Shown in pieces: positions 23,379-35,551 of a stretch of 64,000 nucleotides of DNA. The position numbers and the translations under genes are program-made. The DNA lies in NCBI GenBank assembly GCA_018657495.1, contig JABHXA010000001.1, forward strand, positions 122,016 to 186,015, given 5' to 3'. This stretch comes from Fidelibacterota bacterium. GTDB taxonomy: Bacteria > Fidelibacterota > Marinisomatia > SCGC-AAA003-L08 > JACNLC01. The notes under the pieces are model-generated. The model worked only from the letters and a program-made list of their open reading frames with translations, was not told the DNA's origin and did no database searches. Each line of letters begins with the position of its first letter. Positions within the stretch are counted from its first letter, which is position 1.

Positions 23379-24161
23379 TCAATTTTTCTTATTTAAACTT
23401 TTTAGGGTTGTTATAAATGAAGAAGCACCTTCCAATGGATTTACCGCTGTCTCCATTGCTTTTATTAGAGCACTACCCACCACAGCCCCATCCGAGTGCT
23501 GGTTAATTAGTTGTACATCTTGCGGAGATTTGATGCCAAATCCAACTACGTATGGAACTGTACTGTTTTTTTTGACTCGCATAAGATAATTAACAAGATC
23601 AGAGTTATCAGCTGATTTTTTACCCGTCACCCCTAAAACAGATACACAGTAAAGAAGAACACCTGAAATTTTTGATATTTTCTTAATTCTGCTATCAGGC
23701 GTATTCGGTGCAACCAGCATGATTGGTGCTAAACCATACTTTTTCATTTCATCCGTAATATCTTCACATTCTTCCGGCGGAAGATCGGGGATAATTAGTC
23801 CATCAACACCACATTGTTTACAATCCTTGATAAATTTTTGCCAGCCATATTGCATGATTGGATTGATGTATCCCATCAATACTATTGGAGTTTCACATCC
23901 ACGGCTGCGAATCAGGGTTACCTGCTCTAAAATCCACTTTACTGTCACTCCATTTGAAAGGGCAATTTGACTGGATTTCTGAATTATGGGTCCATCGGCA
24001 AGCGGATCAGAAAAGGGCATACCCAATTCGATCATATCTGCACCTGATGCTTCGGCAGCCAACACTAATGGTATGGTGATATCAAGAGAGGGATATCCTG
24101 CCGTGATAAATGGAATTAGCTTACTTTTAGGTTGTGAAAAGAGGGTTTTAATTCGATTCAT
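23379..24161 (-). CDS. trpA: tryptophan synthase alpha chain
   Basis: 260 aa with ELGMPFSDPLADGPIIQ and GFGI motifs. Last gene of the trp operon. Confidence 0.95.
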   Translation of the reverse strand: MNRIKTLFSQPKSKLIPFITAGYPSLDITIPLVLAAEASGADMIELGMPFSDPLADGPIIQKSSQIALSNGVTVKWILEQVTLIRSRGCETPIVLMGYINPIMQYGWQKFIKDCKQCGVDGLIIPDLPPEECEDITDEMKKYGLAPIMLVAPNTPDSRIKKISKISGVLLYCVSVLGVTGKKSADNSDLVNYLMRVKKNSTVPYVVGFGIKSPQDVQLINQHSDGAVVGSALIKAMETAVNPLEGASSFITTLKSLNKKN

Positions 24162-24182
24162 TTGATAATTGTTATTTCCAGA

Positions 24183-25385
24183 TTACAGTTTAATTCCGAG
24201 GTAATCAGCGACGGTATGAACGTCTTTATCACCACGTCCTGAAAGACAGATTACAACATTATCCCCTGCTGAAATTTCGTTTCCGGGCTTCCTGAGATAT
24301 GCCATTGCATGGGCTGATTCGAGGGCAGGTAATATCCCCTCCATCTCACTGAGCCATCTAAAAGCATTTACAGCTTCATCATCCGTTACCGAATCATAAA
24401 TTACTCTACCGATGTCTTTTAAATGACTGTGTTCCGGTCCGACACCAGGATAATCCAACCCGGCAGAGATGGAATGAGGAAGTGTAATTTGACCATCGTC
24501 ATTTTGAAGCAGATAACTTGCTGACCCGTGTAAAATACCATATTTACCTTGTGTCATTGTTGCTGCATGTTTATCCGTTTCGGTACCTAGTCCGGCAGCT
24601 TCGACCCCGATAAGTTTCACTTTATCAGATAAAAATGGATAGAACATACCAATGGCATTACTGCCACCGCCGACACATGCAACTATTACGTCAGGTAATT
24701 TATTTTCAGTTAATTTATCCATTGCAAAAAACTGTTCCCTGGTCTCGATGCCGATTACTGATTGAAAATCACGGACAATCATTGGGTATGGATGGGGCCC
24801 GACAACGGAGCCAATAAGATAGTAGGTGTTCTCGACGTTTTCGACCCAATCTCTGATCGCCTCATTGGTTGCATCTTTTAGCGTTTTGCTCCCAGAGTTT
24901 ACAGAACGAACCTCGGCACCCAGTAATTCCATTCGAAACACATTCAATTTCTGTCGGCGGATGTCTTCCTCACCCATATAAACCACACATTCCAGACCGA
25001 ATTGAGCCGCCACTGTAGCGGTCGCCACACCATGCTGCCCTGCTCCAGTCTCGGCAATGATTCGTTTTTTTTCCATCTTTTCGGCAAGAAGTATTTGACC
25101 CAGCGCATTATTGATTTTGTGAGCTCCGGTATGATTTAAATCTTCTCTCTTCAGATAAATATTAAATCCGCATTCTTTTGAGATTTGTCTGGCAAAATAT
25201 AAGGGAGTTGGCCGGCCGGAATAATTCTGAAGTAAATTGGTTAAACGATCCTGGAACTGGATATCATTTTGTATTTGCCCATAGAGTTCTTCCAGCTCAT
25301 TGATAGCCGGGATTAGTGATTCTGGGACATATTTTCCACCAAATTTATTGAAATGCCCTCTGATATCCGGGTATTCATAGGTCAT
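24183..25385 (-). CDS. trpB: tryptophan synthase beta chain
   Basis: 400 aa with [16 protein letters not shown] (PLP Lys), [10 protein letters not shown] and GGGSNAIG. Confidence 0.97.
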
Positions 25386-26068
25386 CAGACATCATCCGCT
25401 GAAATCGAATCATCTGGTAATTCTTCCTTTGTTGCTTCGAAAATATTCTTATATGGGCCAGTATTTTTAACCGTTTGAAAAAATTCATCTATTTTATTAT
25501 GATCTTTTAATCCAGGTGATAATTCAACACCACTGTTTACATCCAGAGCATGCGGATTGATGGTCTTTATGGCATCTTTGACAATTTTGTGATTTAACCC
25601 GCCACTTAAGATGATTGGTTTATTCCATTTATGATTATTGATAAGGGACCAGTCAAAGGATTTTCCAGTTCCGCCATAACTTTTTTCTGACCATGTATCC
25701 AGCAGGAGAGCGCAGACATTATTGGGGAATTCCATAGTTACGGATACCCCTTTTTTTAATCTCAATGCTCGTATGACAGGTTTTGAGAGAGACTGACAAA
25801 ATTCATCAGATTCGTCTCCATGGAGCTGAATTAAATCAAGACTTGCTGTTTTTATAATAGATTCAATGTGGGGCATAGATTCATTGACAAATATACCTAC
25901 TTTTTTAATTTTTCTATCCGTTCCCTCAGAAATAATCCCAGCACTTTTTGGTGAAATAAATCGTGGACTTCCAGGATAAAATATATAACCCATCGCAGAC
26001 GCCCCGACTCTTACAGCATATCTGGCATCACTCAAATTGGTTATGCCACAAATCTTTACCGGAATCAT
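25385..26068 (-). CDS. trpF: phosphoribosylanthranilate isomerase
   Basis: 227 aa with KICGIT, QLHG and LDVNSGVE. The TGA stop overlaps the trpB ATG by 1 nt. There is a short acidic C-terminal extension. Confidence 0.9.
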
Positions 26069-26845
26069 TTATTGTCCATCCAGTAACTGCGGGATGGCCA
26101 ACCCCGGATTGTCTTTATTCATAAGGGAAGTCCCAACTAGAATGGCATCATATCCAATTGTATCCACAAATCTAACATGCTCGTTGGAATGAATTCCACT
26201 TTCAGCAATTTTGATGGATGTTTCTGGAAGATGATGATAAGATGTTTCAAACCACTTCAAATCGATCTCCATAGTTTCGAGGTTTCTTGAGTTTACGCCA
26301 CAAATTTCCGGTTTCAATTTTTTGACTTTTTTTATCGCAGACATGGAGTGCGCCTCAACAAGAACTTTCAGTCCAATTTCCATTGCCTTTTCATATAATG
26401 ATTCTAATACAGAATATTCGAGGATATCGGCAATTAAAAGTAATGCATCAGCGCCATGCAAATATGATTCGTATACCTGGTACTCACTGATAATAAAGTC
26501 TTTACGGAGAATCGGAATTTTTACCGAAGATTTAATTTTTGATAGCAATTCAATTGATCCGCCAAAAAAGGGATTATCAGTAAGAACGGAAATTGCCGCC
26601 GCACCATTATTTTCATAGGATTCAGCAATTTCAACTGGATCATTTGTCTTATTAATGATACCCTCAGAAGGAGATTTCTGTTTTATTTCGGCGATGACCG
26701 ATATGACATCTGAAGTCAAAGCCTTGAGCATGTTTGCCCGTTTAAAATTTTTATGTTTTGCTCGTAAAACTTCTATGGGGGTTTTATTTTCTAAAACTTG
26801 TAGTTCCTGTTTTTTTGACTCAATAATTTTATTGAGTGTATTCAT
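26069..26845 (-). CDS. trpC: indole-3-glycerol-phosphate synthase
   Basis: 258 aa with VIAEIKQKSPS, LRKDFI, EAHS and GVNSRNL. It abuts trpF. Confidence 0.93.
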   Translation of the reverse strand: MNTLNKIIESKKQELQVLENKTPIEVLRAKHKNFKRANMLKALTSDVISVIAEIKQKSPSEGIINKTNDPVEIAESYENNGAAAISVLTDNPFFGGSIELLSKIKSSVKIPILRKDFIISEYQVYESYLHGADALLLIADILEYSVLESLYEKAMEIGLKVLVEAHSMSAIKKVKKLKPEICGVNSRNLETMEIDLKWFETSYHHLPETSIKIAESGIHSNEHVRFVDTIGYDAILVGTSLMNKDNPGLAIPQLLDGQ

Positions 26846-27840
26846 CTTTTAGAAATTAACTTTTGCATGACATCATATGCTGATCCAGAATCAATGGATT
26901 GCCTTGCCAGTTCAATTCCTTTTGATAAATATTCAACTTTTCCTCCAACAACGATACCTGCGGCAGCATTCAGCAAAACAATATCGCGTCTTGGCCCTGT
27001 TTCGCCACGGAAAATATCAATGATAATCTTGGCATTTTCTTCAGGTTCTCCGCCGGCCAAATCACCCAGCTTTGCAACGGCAATTCCATAATCTGCTGGA
27101 GAAAATACTGTGGATTTAATCGATCCATTTTCCAATTTGGTTACTTTAGTGGAAGATGTATTGGTAATTTCATCCATGCCGTCATGTCCATGCACAACCA
27201 TGGCAGACACAGCATTTAACCGTTTTAAAACTTTTGCAAGTGTTACAGTAAGCACACCATCATAAACTCCCAATACTTGTCGTCTGACACCTGCTGGATT
27301 TGCTAAAGGTCCGAGAATATTAAATACGGTCCTAACCCCAAGAGAAGTGCGCGCCTTGACTGCATATTTCATCGCTGGATGAAGATATGGTGCAAACATA
27401 AAACCGATACCAATTTCATCCACACACTCAGCAACTTTCTCAGGACTCATCGTGATATCAACACCCAATGCTGTCAGTACATCTGCAGACCCGGATTTGG
27501 ATGTCATGGATCGATTACCATGTTTGGCAACTTTTACTCCGGCACCGGCAACTACAAAAGAAGCTGCTGTGGAAATATTAAAAGTACCTCTGGCATCTCC
27601 TCCAGTACCACACATGTCTATGGCATCTGATTGGATGGGAACAGATGTCATTTTTTCTCTCATCGCCTGTGTAAATCCAGCTATCTCCGATGATGATTCT
27701 CCCTTAGAGCGCAATGCAATAAGAAATCCGGCAATCTGAACGTCATTAAATTCACCGGACATGATTTTAAACATAATTTCGCGGGATTCATCCTGATTTA
27801 AGCTTTGATTACCTAATAATTTGTCAATTGTTGTTTTCAT
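26842..27840 (-). CDS. trpD: anthranilate phosphoribosyltransferase
   Basis: 332 aa with DMCGTGGD, FNISTA and KHGNRS. It overlaps trpC by 4 nt. Confidence 0.95.
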   Translation of the reverse strand: MKTTIDKLLGNQSLNQDESREIMFKIMSGEFNDVQIAGFLIALRSKGESSSEIAGFTQAMREKMTSVPIQSDAIDMCGTGGDARGTFNISTAASFVVAGAGVKVAKHGNRSMTSKSGSADVLTALGVDITMSPEKVAECVDEIGIGFMFAPYLHPAMKYAVKARTSLGVRTVFNILGPLANPAGVRRQVLGVYDGVLTVTLAKVLKRLNAVSAMVVHGHDGMDEITNTSSTKVTKLENGSIKSTVFSPADYGIAVAKLGDLAGGEPEENAKIIIDIFRGETGPRRDIVLLNAAAGIVVGGKVEYLSKGIELARQSIDSGSAYDVMQKLISKR

Positions 27841-27883
27841 TTTATATTTCTCAATTTTTTTTCGGGCTTCGAAAAGTGGATAT

Positions 27884-28444
27884 TCAATTTAAAAAGTTTG
27901 AGACCATTTTTTTTCCATAGTCTGTCATAATAGATTCAGGGTGAAACTGAACACCGAATACCGGATATTTTTTATGTTCGATGCCCATGATAATACCATT
28001 ATCTGTCTCAGCAGTTATTCTTAAATCACTTGGAAATGAGCTTCTTTCTGCAATCAATGAATGATATCGAGTGGCGATGAAGGTCTCTGGAATATTATTA
28101 AATATTTTTGATTCCAAATGATTAATACTAGAGGTTTTTCCATGCACAATTTCATCGGCACAGATGATCTTGCCTCCAAATGCTTCCGTTATGGACTGGT
28201 GGCCAAGGCAAATTCCAAAAATCGGAATACTTTTATAAAATCGACGAATCAGGCTGATGGATATTCCCGCCTGCTGCGGAATACCTGGTCCGGGAGATAT
28301 AACTATTCGCTCAGGCTGCATTTTTTCAATATCCTGAATAGTTATTTTATCATTTCGAACTACGGTCAATTCAGAATTTATAACTCCAATGTACTGGACC
28401 AAATTATAAGTGAATGAATCGTAATTATCTATAATCAATATCAT
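27884..28444 (-). CDS. trpG: anthranilate synthase component II (glutamine amidotransferase)
   Basis: 186 aa with IDNYDSFTYNL, GICLGHQ (catalytic Cys) and GVQFHPES. Confidence 0.95.
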   Translation of the reverse strand: MILIIDNYDSFTYNLVQYIGVINSELTVVRNDKITIQDIEKMQPERIVISPGPGIPQQAGISISLIRRFYKSIPIFGICLGHQSITEAFGGKIICADEIVHGKTSSINHLESKIFNNIPETFIATRYHSLIAERSSFPSDLRITAETDNGIIMGIEHKKYPVFGVQFHPESIMTDYGKKMVSNFLN

Positions 28445-28451
28445 GTCTTTC

Positions 28452-29921
28452 TCACGTTACCAAACCATTTTCAGCAAAATCTATTGCTGCATTTATGGCT
28501 TTTGCTTTGTTGATACATTCATTGTATTCTTTCTCAGGGTCAGAATCGTGCACAATCCCTGCCCCGGCTTGAAAATAAGCAATGCCATCCTTAACCACCA
28601 TAGTTCTGATGGCAATACAGGTATTCATATTACCACAGAAATCGACAAAACCAACAGCTCCGCCATATATATTCCTCTTGGCTTTTTCTAAATTATGAAT
28701 AATTTCCATTGCCCTGATTTTTGGTGCACCCGTCAAAGTTCCTGCCGGAAAGCCACTTAATAATGCATCAATTAAATCTACATCCTGTCTTTTCTTTCCG
28801 TGGATTTCAGAAATTATATGCATAACATGAGAATATTTTTCTACCTGCATGAATTCATGAACTTTTACGGTTCCAAATTTGGAAACTTTCCCCACATCGT
28901 TTCTGCCCAAGTCAACAAGCATCAGGTGCTCGGCGCATTCCTTTTTATCTGCAAGCAGCTCATTTTCTAATAAATGGTCCTCCTGTTCGCTGTTTCCCCG
29001 GTGACGCGTGCCTGCAATAGGCCGTAAAATTATTGTGTTATCTTCTACTTTTACAAGCAATTCAGGTGAGGCGCCAATTATTGCCCAATCATCAATTTTA
29101 ATATAAAATAAATATGGCGACGGATTAATAGATCTCAAGGCTCGATAGATATCCACAGGTTTGGCATTTGTTTTCCTTTGGAATCTCTGGCTCAGTACCA
29201 CCTGAAAAATATCACCGGATTTTATATGGTCTTTGGCCTGTTTAACAACGTCAGTAAATTCTTCAAGTGTCGTTTCAAATTTAATTTTACTTCTCTTTAG
29301 TTTGACTGGACTCTGATAATCAATATCTGTATGGAGGTCATCTCCCAGTTCATCAATTCTCTGATTTGCTTTTGCATAGGCTTTCGGCAAATCATCTGTT
29401 TCAGTGTTGACATTACTAAATACAATAATTCTATTTTTTAAATGATCAAAAACGATGATATCCTCATAAACCATGAATACGGAATCCGGCACACCCAGTT
29501 CATCGGTATCGTAAATTGGAATATCCTCATTTAAACGGATGCATTCATATCCCAAATACCCCACAACCCCACCGGTAAACCCGGGAAATCCACTGATCTG
29601 ACAGCTGCTGTATGAGCTTACCAGGGTCCTAAGGTTATCTAAATATGAATTTGGACTTTCATAATTGAGATTATTTTCTGTGATTGTGGTTTTATTGTCG
29701 GCAAAATTGATTATCTTCTGGGGATTTCTTCCAATATAGGAATATCTTGAAAACCGAGTTCCTTTTTCAACTGATTCAAATAGAAAAGAATATTTTGAGT
29801 TTTGGGACAATCTCAAATAGGCCGAAATCGGCGTCAGTAAATCTGCAAGAATCTGCTTATATACCGGAACCATTTTATGCTTTCCGGCAAGTAATAAAAA
29901 TTCAGAATAAGTCATATCCAT
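28452..29921 (-). CDS. trpE: anthranilate synthase component I
   Basis: 489 aa with an N-terminal Trp-feedback region (LFESVE), GAPK.RAMEII, and the GGAVGY-type motif reading GGAVGF here. Confidence 0.95.
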   Translation of the reverse strand: MDMTYSEFLLLAGKHKMVPVYKQILADLLTPISAYLRLSQNSKYSFLFESVEKGTRFSRYSYIGRNPQKIINFADNKTTITENNLNYESPNSYLDNLRTLVSSYSSCQISGFPGFTGGVVGYLGYECIRLNEDIPIYDTDELGVPDSVFMVYEDIIVFDHLKNRIIVFSNVNTETDDLPKAYAKANQRIDELGDDLHTDIDYQSPVKLKRSKIKFETTLEEFTDVVKQAKDHIKSGDIFQVVLSQRFQRKTNAKPVDIYRALRSINPSPYLFYIKIDDWAIIGASPELLVKVEDNTIILRPIAGTRHRGNSEQEDHLLENELLADKKECAEHLMLVDLGRNDVGKVSKFGTVKVHEFMQVEKYSHVMHIISEIHGKKRQDVDLIDALLSGFPAGTLTGAPKIRAMEIIHNLEKAKRNIYGGAVGFVDFCGNMNTCIAIRTMVVKDGIAYFQAGAGIVHDSDPEKEYNECINKAKAINAAIDFAENGLVT

Positions 29922-30060
29922 TAGATTAATTCATTTTTAGTTTTCAAAATTTTCATTTTGCTCTGTATGCATACATACCATTGCTAATTATTAAGTTTTA
30001 TATCAAACTGTCAAAAAGACAAAGGCCTCTTTCTTATACCAGTGAATCGATTAATCTTAT

Positions 30061-30089
30061 AAACAAAAAACCCCGCTTTATTTGCGGGG
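30061..30089 (-). terminator. intrinsic terminator in the trpE 5' leader (attenuator terminator)
   Basis: The minus strand reads GGACCCCGC-AAATAAA-GCGGGG followed by TTTTTTGTTT. It lies between the leader ORF (30123..30170) and the trpE ATG (29921). No minus-strand gene upstream could own it, because the next gene (30312) is on the plus strand. Confidence 0.75.
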
Positions 30090-30122
30090 TCCAATTCACC
30101 TTATACAATTCCAGGTGGATTA

Positions 30123-30170
30123 TTAACCCTTGAAACACTGCCACCAGAAATCATCTTTTTTGTATTGCAT
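30123..30170 (-). CDS. trpL: trp operon leader peptide (15 codons, tandem Trp codons)
   Basis: Below the ORF-track size cutoff. The minus strand reads ATG CAA TAC AAA AAA GAT GAT TTC TGG TGG CAG TGT TTC AAG GGT TAA, giving MQYKKDDFWWQCFKG. The TGG TGG pair is at 30146..30141. The terminator hairpin starts about 30 nt after the stop. Confidence 0.6.
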   Translation of the reverse strand: MQYKKDDFWWQCFKG

Positions 30171-30311
30171 TGTAGTTAATTTAATAAATCAGGAGAACTA
30201 AAAACAAAATAATTTCGATTGGGGCTGCCTTATCTAAACCGATAAATTATCCATTTGTAATATGACAAATTATAGAAAATCTAAATTCAATAATTAAGAA
30301 TCAGAACACCT

Positions 30312-31319
30312 ATGAATAAATATATCAATATCTGGCTTTTTTCAGCATGTATTCTAATTATCACCATGGTAGTTATTGGGGGCATTACCAGACTTACCCA
30401 TTCTGGTCTGTCCATGGTTCAGTGGAAACCCGTATCCGGAAGTATCCCGCCGCTGAATGAAACTGATTGGCAGGTTGAGTTTGACCATTACAAACAATAT
30501 CCCGAATACAAACTCATAAATAATAAAATGACACTTGATGAATTCAAATCCATATTCTTCTGGGAATACATTCATCGAATGATTGGTCGTTTTCTCGGTT
30601 TATTATTTGTGATTCCATTTTGTATTTTTTATTACAAGAAAATGATTCCCGATAAACTTTATCCAAATCTTTTTATTATGTTTGGACTTGGATTCCTACA
30701 GGGATTAATGGGCTGGTATATGGTTAAAAGCGGATTGGCTGATAATCCACATGTCAGTCATTACAGGCTGGCGGCACATTTCCTACTCGCTGTCGCTCTT
30801 GTTGGATATATATTCTGGACCATTTTGGATTTCAATTATAAAAAAATAAAATTTCCTGTGAATTCTGGACTACTAAAGTATAGTATAATAATTTCGGTAA
30901 TCATTGTACTTCAAATGATATACGGCGCTTTTACAGCTGGCCTTAAGGCAGGGTTTGCCTGGAATACTTTCCCATTGATGAACGGACTCTGGATTCCAGA
31001 TGGACTCTTTTCTCTAAATCCTGTCTGGAAAAATCTGGTGGAAAATAATATGACCGTTCAGTTCATTCATCGATATGTTGGGATTCTCATTCTGACAATT
31101 GTTAGCGGCCTGCTGCTTAAGGTACGAAAACAACCGGAAAACTATCATATAAAAAAACCAGTAACTCGTTTAGCGATTATCGTCTGGATTCAGGTCATTC
31201 TGGGCATTAGTACTTTACTAATGTTTACCCCTGTCTGGATGGCGGTTGTTCACCAGGTACTTGCTGTCTTACTTTTTTTATCCTCATTGCATCTTATCTG
31301 GACATTAAAGCAAAATTAG
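30312..31319 (+). CDS. ctaA: heme A synthase (COX15/CtaA family)
   Basis: 335-aa polytopic membrane protein with ITRLTHSGLSMVQWKP, EYIHRMIGR and conserved His pairs (HR..G, HQ..A). Confidence 0.85.
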   Translation: MNKYINIWLFSACILIITMVVIGGITRLTHSGLSMVQWKPVSGSIPPLNETDWQVEFDHYKQYPEYKLINNKMTLDEFKSIFFWEYIHRMIGRFLGLLFVIPFCIFYYKKMIPDKLYPNLFIMFGLGFLQGLMGWYMVKSGLADNPHVSHYRLAAHFLLAVALVGYIFWTILDFNYKKIKFPVNSGLLKYSIIISVIIVLQMIYGAFTAGLKAGFAWNTFPLMNGLWIPDGLFSLNPVWKNLVENNMTVQFIHRYVGILILTIVSGLLLKVRKQPENYHIKKPVTRLAIIVWIQVILGISTLLMFTPVWMAVVHQVLAVLLFLSSLHLIWTLKQN

Positions 31320-33668: not shown

Positions 33669-35474
33669 TTAAGTGGATATATGTTTATGGAGAAATGATT
33701 CCATTGCTCGATAGAAATCAAAAATATTCTCTTCATTCTGGAAGCCGTGACCTTCATTATCCTTCACCATGTATTCAATTTCAATCCCTCGTTCTTTAAG
33801 GGCATTTACCATTTGGTCAGACTCATTCTTTTTCACTCTAGGGTCATTTGCACCCTGGGCAATAAATAATGGTGTCTTAATTTTATCTGCATGTTTTGCC
33901 GGGGAGTATTTCTCAAACATTTCCCTGTCTTTTTCAGGATGCCCGACCATTTCATACATCATTTCAAGGTATTGTTTCCAATACGGCGGGATCGTCTCAA
34001 GAAATGTAAACAAATTAGAAACACCCACAAAATCTATAGCACAGGCATATACATCCGGTGTTTTTACAATTGCAGATAATGTGGCATAACCACCGTAACT
34101 GCCACCAAAAATTGCCAATTTATCAGGATCTGCAATTCCCCTGTCAATCAAATATTGAACACCGTCAGTAATATCATCCTGCATGGTCTGGCCCCATTGT
34201 TTGAAGCTAGCCTTCAGGAATGATTTTCCGTAACCGGTAGAACCCCTGAAATTCATTTGGAATACAGCAAATCCCCTATTAACAAGAAACTGAATTGCAG
34301 GATTATATCCCCATGCATCGCGATGCCAGGGTCCACCATGTGGATGCACAACAACCGGAAGCTTCTCAGCTTTTTTATCATTTGGCACAGAGAGATACCC
34401 ATGAATTACCAAACCGTCTCTCGAGGTGTATTTTATCGGTTTCATTTCCGCCATATCGTTTTCTGACAGCCAGGGCGTTAAGTCAAAAAGTTTGGTAAGT
34501 GTCCAGGATTTTAAATCGCAATAATAATATGCTCCGAGGGTTCGATCGCTTCCTGAATGTACAGTACAAGAGTTTTCTTCTCGGTCAAAAGACGTTACTG
34601 AATTTTCATATCCAGGTAATTTATCATCAAGAAAATTCTGAAGTTTTTCTCTTTCGTCATCAAAAAAGTGATAATGCAGACGGTCAGTATAGTATGATAC
34701 ACCCGTAATTAATTTTCGTTTTTTTGAAATCATCAAACGGGAAATATCCACTTCATCATGCTCATAGATCAACAATGTTTCTTTACCTGTTCTCAAATCG
34801 TAGGTGAATAGGGAGGATTTATCACTATTGACATTTGAGCTGACATAAATGGATTGATTATCAAATGTGAAAAAGAGTGGAATGGCATTTTCAACAAAAT
34901 TGTATGTCGCCACTGTTTTCCAGGTGAATGCCTCGGTTTCCCTAAAAAGAATACTATTATTTACACCGTCAGTTGTAACACATAATCGCAACTTTCCATC
35001 ATGATCTGTAAACCACTGCGATATATTTCCTGGATTTTCAGCGATCAAATCCAATTGGCCATTTTGAACATTTAATCGATAAACATCAAAAAATTCTTTT
35101 TTTCTTTTATTCATTTGAATCAGCACATGATCATCGTCATTTTCAAGTTCATCTACAATATCACATTTCACATCCTTGAAAGGAGTGAGATCCAAATTAT
35201 TAGTCCCATCTATCCCAACAGAGTAGAGACGAGTGTTTTCATCACCTCCTGTATCTTTTAAATAAATAAGCCGATCATTGTTACACCAGGTATACCCTTG
35301 AATATCCCGATCAATTCCGTGGGTCAACTGATTTACTTCCCCATCGGGTAGAGCTTTTACGAATAAGTTCATCCGTCGCTTATGTGGTGCAAGATAGGCA
35401 AGGGTTTTCCCATCGGGCGACAATTCGATATTGATTTTTTCAGGTTTTCTGAATAAATCTTCAATGGTGATCAT
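33669..35474 (-). CDS. S9-family serine peptidase (prolyl oligopeptidase / dipeptidyl aminopeptidase type)
   Basis: The ORF is open to 35540. ATG 35474 (MITIEDLFRKPE) looks like the more natural start. It has an N-terminal beta-propeller and a C-terminal alpha/beta hydrolase domain with the nucleophile elbow GGSYGGY plus ANDPRV and GHGF. No signal peptide. Confidence 0.85.
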   Translation of the reverse strand: MITIEDLFRKPEKINIELSPDGKTLAYLAPHKRRMNLFVKALPDGEVNQLTHGIDRDIQGYTWCNNDRLIYLKDTGGDENTRLYSVGIDGTNNLDLTPFKDVKCDIVDELENDDDHVLIQMNKRKKEFFDVYRLNVQNGQLDLIAENPGNISQWFTDHDGKLRLCVTTDGVNNSILFRETEAFTWKTVATYNFVENAIPLFFTFDNQSIYVSSNVNSDKSSLFTYDLRTGKETLLIYEHDEVDISRLMISKKRKLITGVSYYTDRLHYHFFDDEREKLQNFLDDKLPGYENSVTSFDREENSCTVHSGSDRTLGAYYYCDLKSWTLTKLFDLTPWLSENDMAEMKPIKYTSRDGLVIHGYLSVPNDKKAEKLPVVVHPHGGPWHRDAWGYNPAIQFLVNRGFAVFQMNFRGSTGYGKSFLKASFKQWGQTMQDDITDGVQYLIDRGIADPDKLAIFGGSYGGYATLSAIVKTPDVYACAIDFVGVSNLFTFLETIPPYWKQYLEMMYEMVGHPEKDREMFEKYSPAKHADKIKTPLFIAQGANDPRVKKNESDQMVNALKERGIEIEYMVKDNEGHGFQNEENIFDFYRAMESFLHKHIST

Positions 35475-35551
35475 ATGTTTCCCCGTTACGTTGAAAGGTG
35501 GTTTCTGGTGGGCCAGCGTATCAAAAATGATGCAAAACACCCATTAGATAA

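Follow-up and report, generated by a model that had tools for sequence, protein, structure and literature searches.

A functional ribosome-mediated (leader-peptide) tryptophan (Trp) attenuator probably governs the trpEGDCFBA operon of Candidatus Marinimicrobia found in a 64,000-nucleotide stretch of contig JABHXA010000001.1 (assembly GCA_018657495.1; hereafter the window, meaning the whole stretch), and a probability of roughly 0.85 is assigned to this reading. The element lies upstream of trpE on the minus strand and comprises a short leader open reading frame (ORF) with two tandem Trp codons, an intrinsic terminator and RNA segments that pair in competing ways. The grounds for it are these sequence elements and their conservation among relatives, antiterminator strands that co-vary, and an arrangement that is consistent in its geometry and thermodynamics; from them we infer the transcription start, translation of the ORF, kinetic coupling of the two processes and a response to Trp. 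An initial annotation of the window, made from the sequence, had proposed the same kind of attenuator, and the conservation of the ORF together with the co-varying competing structure supports that proposal.

Leader ORF and terminator

The leader ORF (30123..30170, minus strand), which is trpL-like and was read directly in the sequence, has 15 codons and a stop (ATG CAA TAC AAA AAA GAT GAT TTC TGG TGG CAG TGT TTC AAG GGT TAA) and encodes the peptide MQYKKDDFWWQCFKG. The putative regulatory codons are the tandem UGG UGG at 30141..30146 (minus strand). The stop is separated by 30 nt from the intrinsic terminator (segments 3:4; 30061..30092, minus strand; -15.2 kcal/mol), formed by a GC-rich stem of 9 bp with a 7-nt loop and a U-run. 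The hairpin itself, written GGACCCCGC-AAATAAA-GCGGGGUUU or GGACCCCGC-AAATAAA-GCGGGGTTT, occupies 30092..30068 and the T-run goes on to 30061. A spacer of 139 nt (29922..30060, minus strand) extends from the T-run to the ATG of trpE at 29921. The initial annotation had described the ORF with tandem TGG at 30170..30123, a GC-rich hairpin with a T-run about 30 nt past it (30089..30061) and a trpE start about 140 nt further on; the first two are present exactly so and the third distance was measured at 139 nt.

It had also held that the hairpin ends no other gene, and this stands: the terminator serves no other gene because the neighbouring heme A synthase gene, which starts at 30312, is divergent and the nearest same-strand ORF upstream of the leader ends about 1.97 kb away. 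In a consensus scan of 29800..30400 the trp leader hairpin was the single terminator-like site, against 0.2 expected from shuffled sequences.

Competing RNA structures

Three mutually exclusive structures of similar stability were identified in the leader, the terminator being one of them. The 1:2 hairpin or anti-antiterminator (30105..30154, minus strand; -12.8 kcal/mol) is the minimum free energy (MFE) structure of the naked leader; the Trp codons are in its 5' arm, AUGAUUUCUGGUGG, and its loop, which contains the leader stop and GGGUU, leads to the 3' arm, UCCACCUGGAAUUGU. The antiterminator (2:3; 30087..30129, minus strand; -13.7 kcal/mol) is the MFE structure of the transcript that stops short of the terminator 3' arm, whether the RNA is naked or carries a ribosome stalled on UGG UGG. 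It joins GGGUU..UAAU.CACCU (30129..30113) to AGGUG.AUUG.GACCC (30101..30087), so that the terminator 5' arm has 6 of its 9 nt tied up. Both alternative pairings suggested by the initial annotation were recovered: that of UUUCUGGUGG with CCACCUGGAA in the MFE 1:2 hairpin, and that of GGGUU with the terminator 5' arm as GGGUU:GACCC within the antiterminator.

Folding of the naked transcript at growing lengths gives the 1:2 hairpin first (lengths 76-92), followed by the antiterminator, marginally favoured at 96-104. After the terminator 3' arm has emerged, the combination of 1:2 hairpin and terminator wins decisively, at -31 kcal/mol.

Conservation and co-variation among relatives

The comparison comprises 120 TrpE homologs (58-100% identity) that fall into 14 clusters at 80% identity. 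Upstream DNA was compared for representatives of 11 of these clusters and for two moderately close metagenome loci (L022 and L023). The latter were the close relatives among the matches listed in a search of metagenome contigs with two universal motifs of the TrpE alignment, AEHLML[VL]D and GAPKIRAM; the other 78 metagenome loci among those matches were used for a cross-phylum survey only. A search of genomes for TrpE contigs gave only Firmicutes loci (L001-L016; 40-45% identity), useless for leader comparison. The homologs with 58-65% identity are named Candidatus Marinimicrobia/Neomarinimicrobiota or FCB group bacterium, and the exact TrpE of the window is also encoded on contig JABIDX010000003.1 of GCA_018651535.1, a metagenome-assembled genome (MAG). 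A protein in the 90% cluster of this TrpE bears the NCBI names Candidatus Marinimicrobia bacterium and Candidatus Neomarinimicrobiota bacterium, which places the host in the SAR406/Marinimicrobia lineage. The G+C content of the window is 37%.

The attenuator layout was identified upstream of trpE in 6 of the 11 sampled Marinimicrobia/FCB TrpE clusters and in both metagenome loci. It consists of a leader ORF with Trp codons, a G-rich segment and then a terminator 5' arm of the (A)ACCCC(G) type complementary to that segment. The nine loci carry eight distinct leaders, the window and L018 (TrpE 91% identical) sharing MQYKKDDFWWQCFKG, with the core DFWWQCF. L019 (TrpE 65%) has MQSLLQHCWWLIPMG, also of 15 codons, with two adjacent Trp codons (WW) at codons 9-10 and a Gly codon and then the stop within GGGUUGA. 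L020/L021 (TrpE 63%; 1040-1111 in L020) have MSTRTDRFNYYWYYQTRGLEQRP, core FNYYWYY; L112/L113, from the largest TrpE cluster (71 of the 120 homologs; about 680-750 in L112), have MKYINTNNYYSWYWFFNQEGVS, core NYYSWYWFF; L116-L119 (cluster P0035) have MIQFNSNKYFWWYSVSGENR, core KYFWWYS; and L125 (cluster P0051; about 745-820) has MNISLQQGNEYYWWYFSPRGGLYL, core EYYWWYF. The metagenome loci contain MIHQLIEKIWGFYFYFSYGGLL, core IWGFYFYFSY (L022; TrpE 58%; 259-327), and MNFYLNTTNKFYSWLWCFPERGSL, core YSWLWCF (L023; TrpE 53%).

Trp is present in all eight distinct leaders, six of which have a tandem or near-tandem pair of Trp codons; the residue accounts for 14 of 165 leader residues, compared with 1.1% in the long ORFs of the window. 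Conservation of the WW mini-ORF and the existence of a structure competing with the terminator had both been put forward as checks. The ORF is 100% identical at the nucleotide level in L018, a homologous WW ORF occurs in L019 and Trp leaders occur in L020, L022, L023, L112, L116 and L125; a competing structure was found at every leader-bearing locus, with strands that co-vary. A terminator and a helix equivalent to the antiterminator are present in nine of nine loci.

The closest pair gives the finest comparison. Between the leader ATG and the last base of the U-run, the window and L018 agree at 108 of 110 nt (98%); one change is in the terminator loop (the terminator as a whole is 97% identical) and the second in the inner-hairpin loop of the antiterminator. 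The 139-nt spacer is 69% identical and the 5' region 90%.

Co-variation was assessed with an 8x8 matrix of duplex energies, each locus's segment 2 against each segment 3, and permutation. A permutation test was used rather than column-by-column covariation because bulges and variable inserts would force the alignment to fit the structure. Cognate duplexes average -16.65 kcal/mol and non-cognate duplexes -10.59 kcal/mol; each cognate duplex is the best in its own row, and one of 20,000 permutations reaches the observed cognate mean (p=5e-5). Beyond the GGG:CCC core the antiterminator strands differ among loci and their complementarity is kept, as in L019 (GGGUUGAUAU:AUAUCAACCC), L020 (GGGUUGGAG:..UUCCAACCC), L112 (GGGGUUUCAUAGUC:GACUAUG...AAACCCC) and L116 (CCGGGGAAAAUC:GAUUUUACCCCGG).

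Ribosome position and proposed mechanism

For folding in the presence of a ribosome, a footprint from -15 to +12 around the first A-site nucleotide was assumed and its nucleotides were masked; the kinetic decision was modelled with truncated transcripts ending just before the terminator 3' arm. With the ribosome at Trp, the antiterminator is the MFE structure of the truncated transcript in nine of nine loci, and in all nine the G-rich segment just past the leading edge of the ribosome pairs with the terminator 5' arm. Once the ribosome is placed on the stop codon, eight of the nine loci lose the G-segment helix; mean arm pairing drops to 0.05-0.56 and the remaining pairing is with other partners. 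The exception is L125, where the G-segment lies upstream of the mask, the stop being 17 nt past the G-run, so that the strand is left uncovered. Seven of the eight distinct loci have the G-run 14, 14, 15, 16, 16, 18 and 18 nt after the first base of the last Trp codon, which puts it at the leading edge of the stalled ribosome; in L022 the distance is 27 nt, the gap being filled by Phe and Tyr codons.

The mechanism proposed for the window is the following. Transcription would start upstream of 30170 and the 15-codon leader would be translated as the RNA is made. Under Trp scarcity the low level of charged tRNA-Trp would stall the ribosome at UGG UGG (30146..30141), its footprint covering the 5' arm of the 1:2 hairpin and ending 1-2 nt before GGGUU (30129). 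The freed GGGUU segment could then pair with AUUGGACCC, where the terminator 5' arm begins; the antiterminator (-13.7 kcal/mol) would form before the terminator 3' arm is made, and RNA polymerase would read into trpE. When Trp is plentiful the ribosome would reach the UAA stop (30125..30123) and cover GGGUU plus the next ~12 nt, which would block the antiterminator, let the terminator (-15.2 kcal/mol) fold and end transcription at the U-run (30061). In the absence of translation the 1:2 hairpin (-12.8 kcal/mol) would form first, also favouring termination.

Contrary observations and alternative explanations

A number of observations weigh against the attenuator reading. In full-length equilibrium folding with a stalled ribosome the terminator is still dominant in the window (P=0.94) and in most loci, and only L020 and L116 switch; the control must therefore be kinetic and co-transcriptional, as in Escherichia coli. 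The 1:2 hairpin shows no clear conservation, with a mismatch in L018, something comparable in L125 and no obvious equivalent in several loci, and several naked loci default to the antiterminator. The relatives' leader ORFs were picked for their Trp content, which makes Trp enrichment alone partly circular; the support independent of it is geometry, co-variation and footprint. Five clusters (L102/L104/L107, L114, L120, L123 and L126) have no leader ORF or terminator, their intergenic regions being short or AT-rich; judged from these sequences, the attenuator is widespread in the lineage, not universal. No motif of the Shine-Dalgarno (SD) type precedes the leader ATG. SD motifs were identified in 17 of the 48 long ORFs of the window, about 65% of which, trpE included, are without one, so the start of translation is often SD-independent here. 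A promoter-like TTGACA-16-AATAAT (30014..29987, minus strand), matching 11 of 12 consensus positions, lies between the terminator and trpE and, if active, might give expression that escapes the attenuator; its conservation does not extend to L018, and one such match was found where 3.4 are expected from shuffled sequences. Finally, the host is known only from MAGs.

The absence of an SD motif before the ORF would also suit a transcription attenuator whose sensor is some protein or RNA (TRAP-like, T-box-like or ligand-binding RNA), in which the ORF is incidental and untranslated, and the terminator and its competing structures exist whether or not the ORF is translated. Such a sensor is nevertheless very unlikely. 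Rfam at gathering thresholds gave no family in the whole window. A permissive search of 29880..30320 (441 nt) at E<=10 returned 18 matches, with no T-box (specifier loop and T-box sequence), riboswitch or other cis-regulatory family of this kind among them. Compared with the Bacillus-type TRAP criterion (about 11 (G/U)AG triplets, 2-3 nt apart and overlapping the antiterminator), no array of at least five (G/U)AG repeats was found in the 390-nt leader region, where GAG/TAG triplets total six. Moreover, the leader peptides diverge almost wholly, yet the Trp codons, the frame up to or through the G-segment and the spacing of 14-18 nt are kept, as would be predicted for a ribosome sensor and not for a ligand-binding fold.

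Hardly better placed is the idea that ORF and hairpin make up a small gene of their own, for a terminated sRNA or a small protein (rnTrpL/peTrpL-like), that acts in trans, and not, or not only, in cis on trpE. The freed trp attenuator RNA and the leader peptide of Sinorhizobium meliloti act in trans, according to two papers (PMC6614838, PMC7298713), and the unusually long 139-nt spacer of the window, with a promoter-like site in it, is compatible with such a unit. In the other loci, however, the terminator ends only ~25-55 nt from the trpE start, the peptide is not conserved beyond Trp and aromatic residues, and the element is always directly upstream of trpE; a trans role would in any case add to cis attenuation, not replace it.

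That a short WW ORF and an orphan terminator met by chance in AT-rich intergenic DNA, an idea for which a second WW mini-ORF with a terminator-like site at 35464..35547 might be cited, is effectively refuted by the comparative data, given that the layout recurs before trpE in eight distinct loci with co-varying antiterminator strands (p=5e-5), that the attenuator keeps 98% identity where the adjoining spacer keeps 69%, and that two of 1,280 mini-ORFs qualify in 128 kb (both strands), one of them exactly at trpE. This count covers ORFs of 8-40 codons that begin with ATG, on either strand of the window; 11 of them contain WW, and two of these 11 have a terminator-like site 10-80 nt downstream. 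The second case (plus strand; MVIICFPVTLKGGFWWASVSKMMQNTH), the only other one in the window, overlaps a long minus-strand ORF (33669..35540) and is probably due to chance.

Relation to known RNA families and systems

Two Rfam families of trp leaders are relevant, and the Marinimicrobia leader falls short of quantitative membership in both. Besides the permissive search of 29880..30320, 12 related loci were searched at E<=0.1. Trp_leader (RF00513) matches 30152..30063 with 28.7 bits (gathering cutoff 41; E=7e-4), aligning the UGGUGG hairpin and the terminator. The scores in L018 (29.8 bits) and L125 (31.7 bits) are also below threshold, the whole range being 28.7-31.7 bits with E from 7e-4 to 0.03, which amounts to a weak resemblance to the known family. 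Bacteroid-trp (RF01692), assumed to be present in the copy of Rfam 15 that was used, had no match in 29880..30320 at E<=10 or in the 12 related loci at E<=0.1.

The leader ORF of E. coli trpL has 14 codons. The Marinimicrobia element resembles trpL in its short leader ORF with tandem UGG (15 codons here), in its competing 1:2, 2:3 antiterminator and 3:4 terminator structures, in the GC-rich terminator with a U-run just upstream of trpE and, by the proposed mechanism, in the logic of the stalled versus the released ribosome. It differs in its sub-threshold Trp_leader scores and in its host, which belongs to the FCB group and not to the Proteobacteria; further differences are the lack of an SD motif before the ORF, an antiterminator 5' strand that overlaps the last codons and the stop, a 1:2 hairpin that is not consistently conserved and, in the window lineage, the 139-nt spacer before trpE.

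The initial annotation had regarded an attenuator of this type as unexpected in a lineage that was probably not proteobacterial. The host, Candidatus Marinimicrobia, is indeed non-proteobacterial, but the surprise was overstated, as cases in Bacteroidetes, Actinobacteria and Firmicutes had already been predicted. Candidates in Bacteroidetes/Chlorobi and Thermotogales are reportedly named, too, in the abstract of a 2004 article on attenuators by Vitreschak et al.

The nearest of these cases is the Bacteroid-trp leader motif, located upstream of trpB or trpE in Bacteroidetes and presumed to be a peptide leader with at least two UGG codons (Weinberg et al. 2010, PMC2864571, Additional file 1; accession RF01692 listed in Table 1); no peptide leader of such kind had been reported in Bacteroidetes before, according to those authors. 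The Marinimicrobia leaders share with it a Trp peptide leader before trpE/trpB in a neighbouring FCB phylum, a short ORF with at least two UGG codons followed by hairpins, and an AT-rich context without SD. Seed sequences of the motif often have a Tyr codon before the Trp run (AUACAUAU UGG UGG, in a frame that is our own reading). In contrast, the seeds show no evident similarity to the GGGUU/ACCCCG pair of the window, and only a 'loosely conserved hairpin' is described for them (PMC2864571).

Classical trp attenuators have also been predicted in Corynebacterium and Streptomyces, with complementary triples, themselves conserved, that antiterminator and terminator share (Seliverstov et al. 2005, PMC1262725), analogous to GGG(G)UU / AACCCC / GGGGUU here. 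Leader peptides were likewise found in Firmicutes, and their repeated emergence has been argued (Naville and Gautheret 2010, PMC2965389). The actinobacterial and Firmicute attenuators belong to other phyla, are GC-rich and have no sequence relationship to the present element; the mechanism recurs widely and has probably been reinvented. The element is best filed as a Marinimicrobia trp leader within the classical attenuator class, not as a new kind of system.

In the cross-phylum metagenome survey, at least four further trpE loci among the matches listed (TrpE 44-47% identical) have a Trp-rich mini-ORF and a strong terminator. They are L026 (~728-811), L027 (~745-828), L058 (~627-680) and L075 (~619-672), belong to other phyla, contain WW or WWW mini-ORFs (GWWLW, GWWW, NWCWW) and had no Rfam family match at E<=0.1. 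These unrelated loci fit a recurrent use of the device across bacteria.

A full-text literature search for Marinimicrobia and attenuator returned no paper linking the phylum to attenuators. On the present reading the range of classical leader-peptide attenuation would come to include an abundant uncultured marine phylum, Candidatus Marinimicrobia (SAR406). No Rfam model captures its trp leader, which for genome annotation means an unannotated small ORF and an unannotated cis-regulatory RNA, and the eight distinct leaders (nine loci) could seed a covariance model. The leader would also be indirect evidence for coupled transcription and translation in the lineage and for the sensing of Trp supply through tRNA charging. 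The patchy spread (six clusters with the element and five without it) adds to the picture of frequent gain and loss of attenuators. The understanding of the attenuation mechanism, which is a textbook one, is unchanged.

Aromatic codons and chorismate mutase

Tyr and Phe together make up 34 of the 165 leader residues (20.6%), compared with 8.5% in the window proteins, the loci not being independent of one another, and they cluster around the Trp codons. The leader of the window has only two Phe and one Tyr (DFWWQCF). Many Marinimicrobia loci, whether or not they have the attenuator, contain a small chorismate mutase gene (PF01817, CM_2) directly before trpE and in the same orientation (L020 723-995; L112 463-672; L125 426-683; L104 511-771; L126 552-812; L022 1-~225). 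The leader separates this gene from trpE in L020, L022, L112 and L125, and the window has the divergent heme A synthase gene instead.

The ilvGMEDA leader is a multivalent attenuator with a mixture of Ile, Leu and Val codons. Most of the relatives' leaders resemble it in mixing Trp with Tyr and Phe codons, although the regulatory role of the latter is only putative in Marinimicrobia. That the leaders act as multivalent aromatic attenuators at the chorismate branch point and constitute a phylum-wide RNA element outside Rfam is a tentative and rather doubtful extension of the Trp attenuator reading, and the window's own leader shows the multivalent pattern weakly. If it were true, stalling at different aromatic codons, a few nt apart, could permit or block antitermination, and a single leader could balance the chorismate flux between Phe/Tyr and Trp.

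The trp operon, promoter candidates and the 5' region

The putatively regulated trpEGDCFBA operon (23379..29921, minus strand) has trpE as its first gene (28452..29921; NCBIfam TIGR00564, 588 bits). It is followed on the same strand by trpG (27884..28444), trpD (26842..27840; TIGR01245), trpC (26069..26845), trpF (25385..26068), trpB (24183..25385; TIGR00263) and trpA (23379..24161; TIGR00262), all identified with NCBIfam, as was the heme A synthase gene (30312..31319, plus strand).

Upstream of the leader, a TATAAT hexamer (30269..30274, minus strand) had been suggested in the initial annotation as a possible -10 element. The hexamer is present as a sequence match and remains a candidate; the sigma-70 consensus scan gave it no -35 partner, and in L018 it reads TACAAT. 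The region from this putative -10 to the leader ATG had no significant structure (z=+0.82). An operator-like near-palindrome of 18 bp (ATTTGTCAT/ATTACAAAT, minus strand; 30253-30270) abuts the hexamer; it was dropped as an operator, being degenerate in L018 and so probably due to chance.

A second small ORF was identified just upstream of trpE (29922-29982, minus strand; MVCMHTEQNENFEN), with a counterpart in L018 (1142-1203; MVCMYVEQKEVLKNRNDLI) whose stop overlaps the trpE ATG (TAATG). Both are without Trp codons and their conservation at the protein level is poor.

Three of the clusters without a leader, represented by L102/L104/L107 (~845-870), L114 (~850-875) and L120 (~860-880), share the conserved motif TAAT(A/T)ATTTGTTT(T/C)GG about 45-50 nt before the trpE ATG. 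This motif is possibly a promoter element, and TATAATTTG in the window resembles it. A further leaderless cluster (L123) has instead a divergent gene for an AsnC/Lrp-type regulator.

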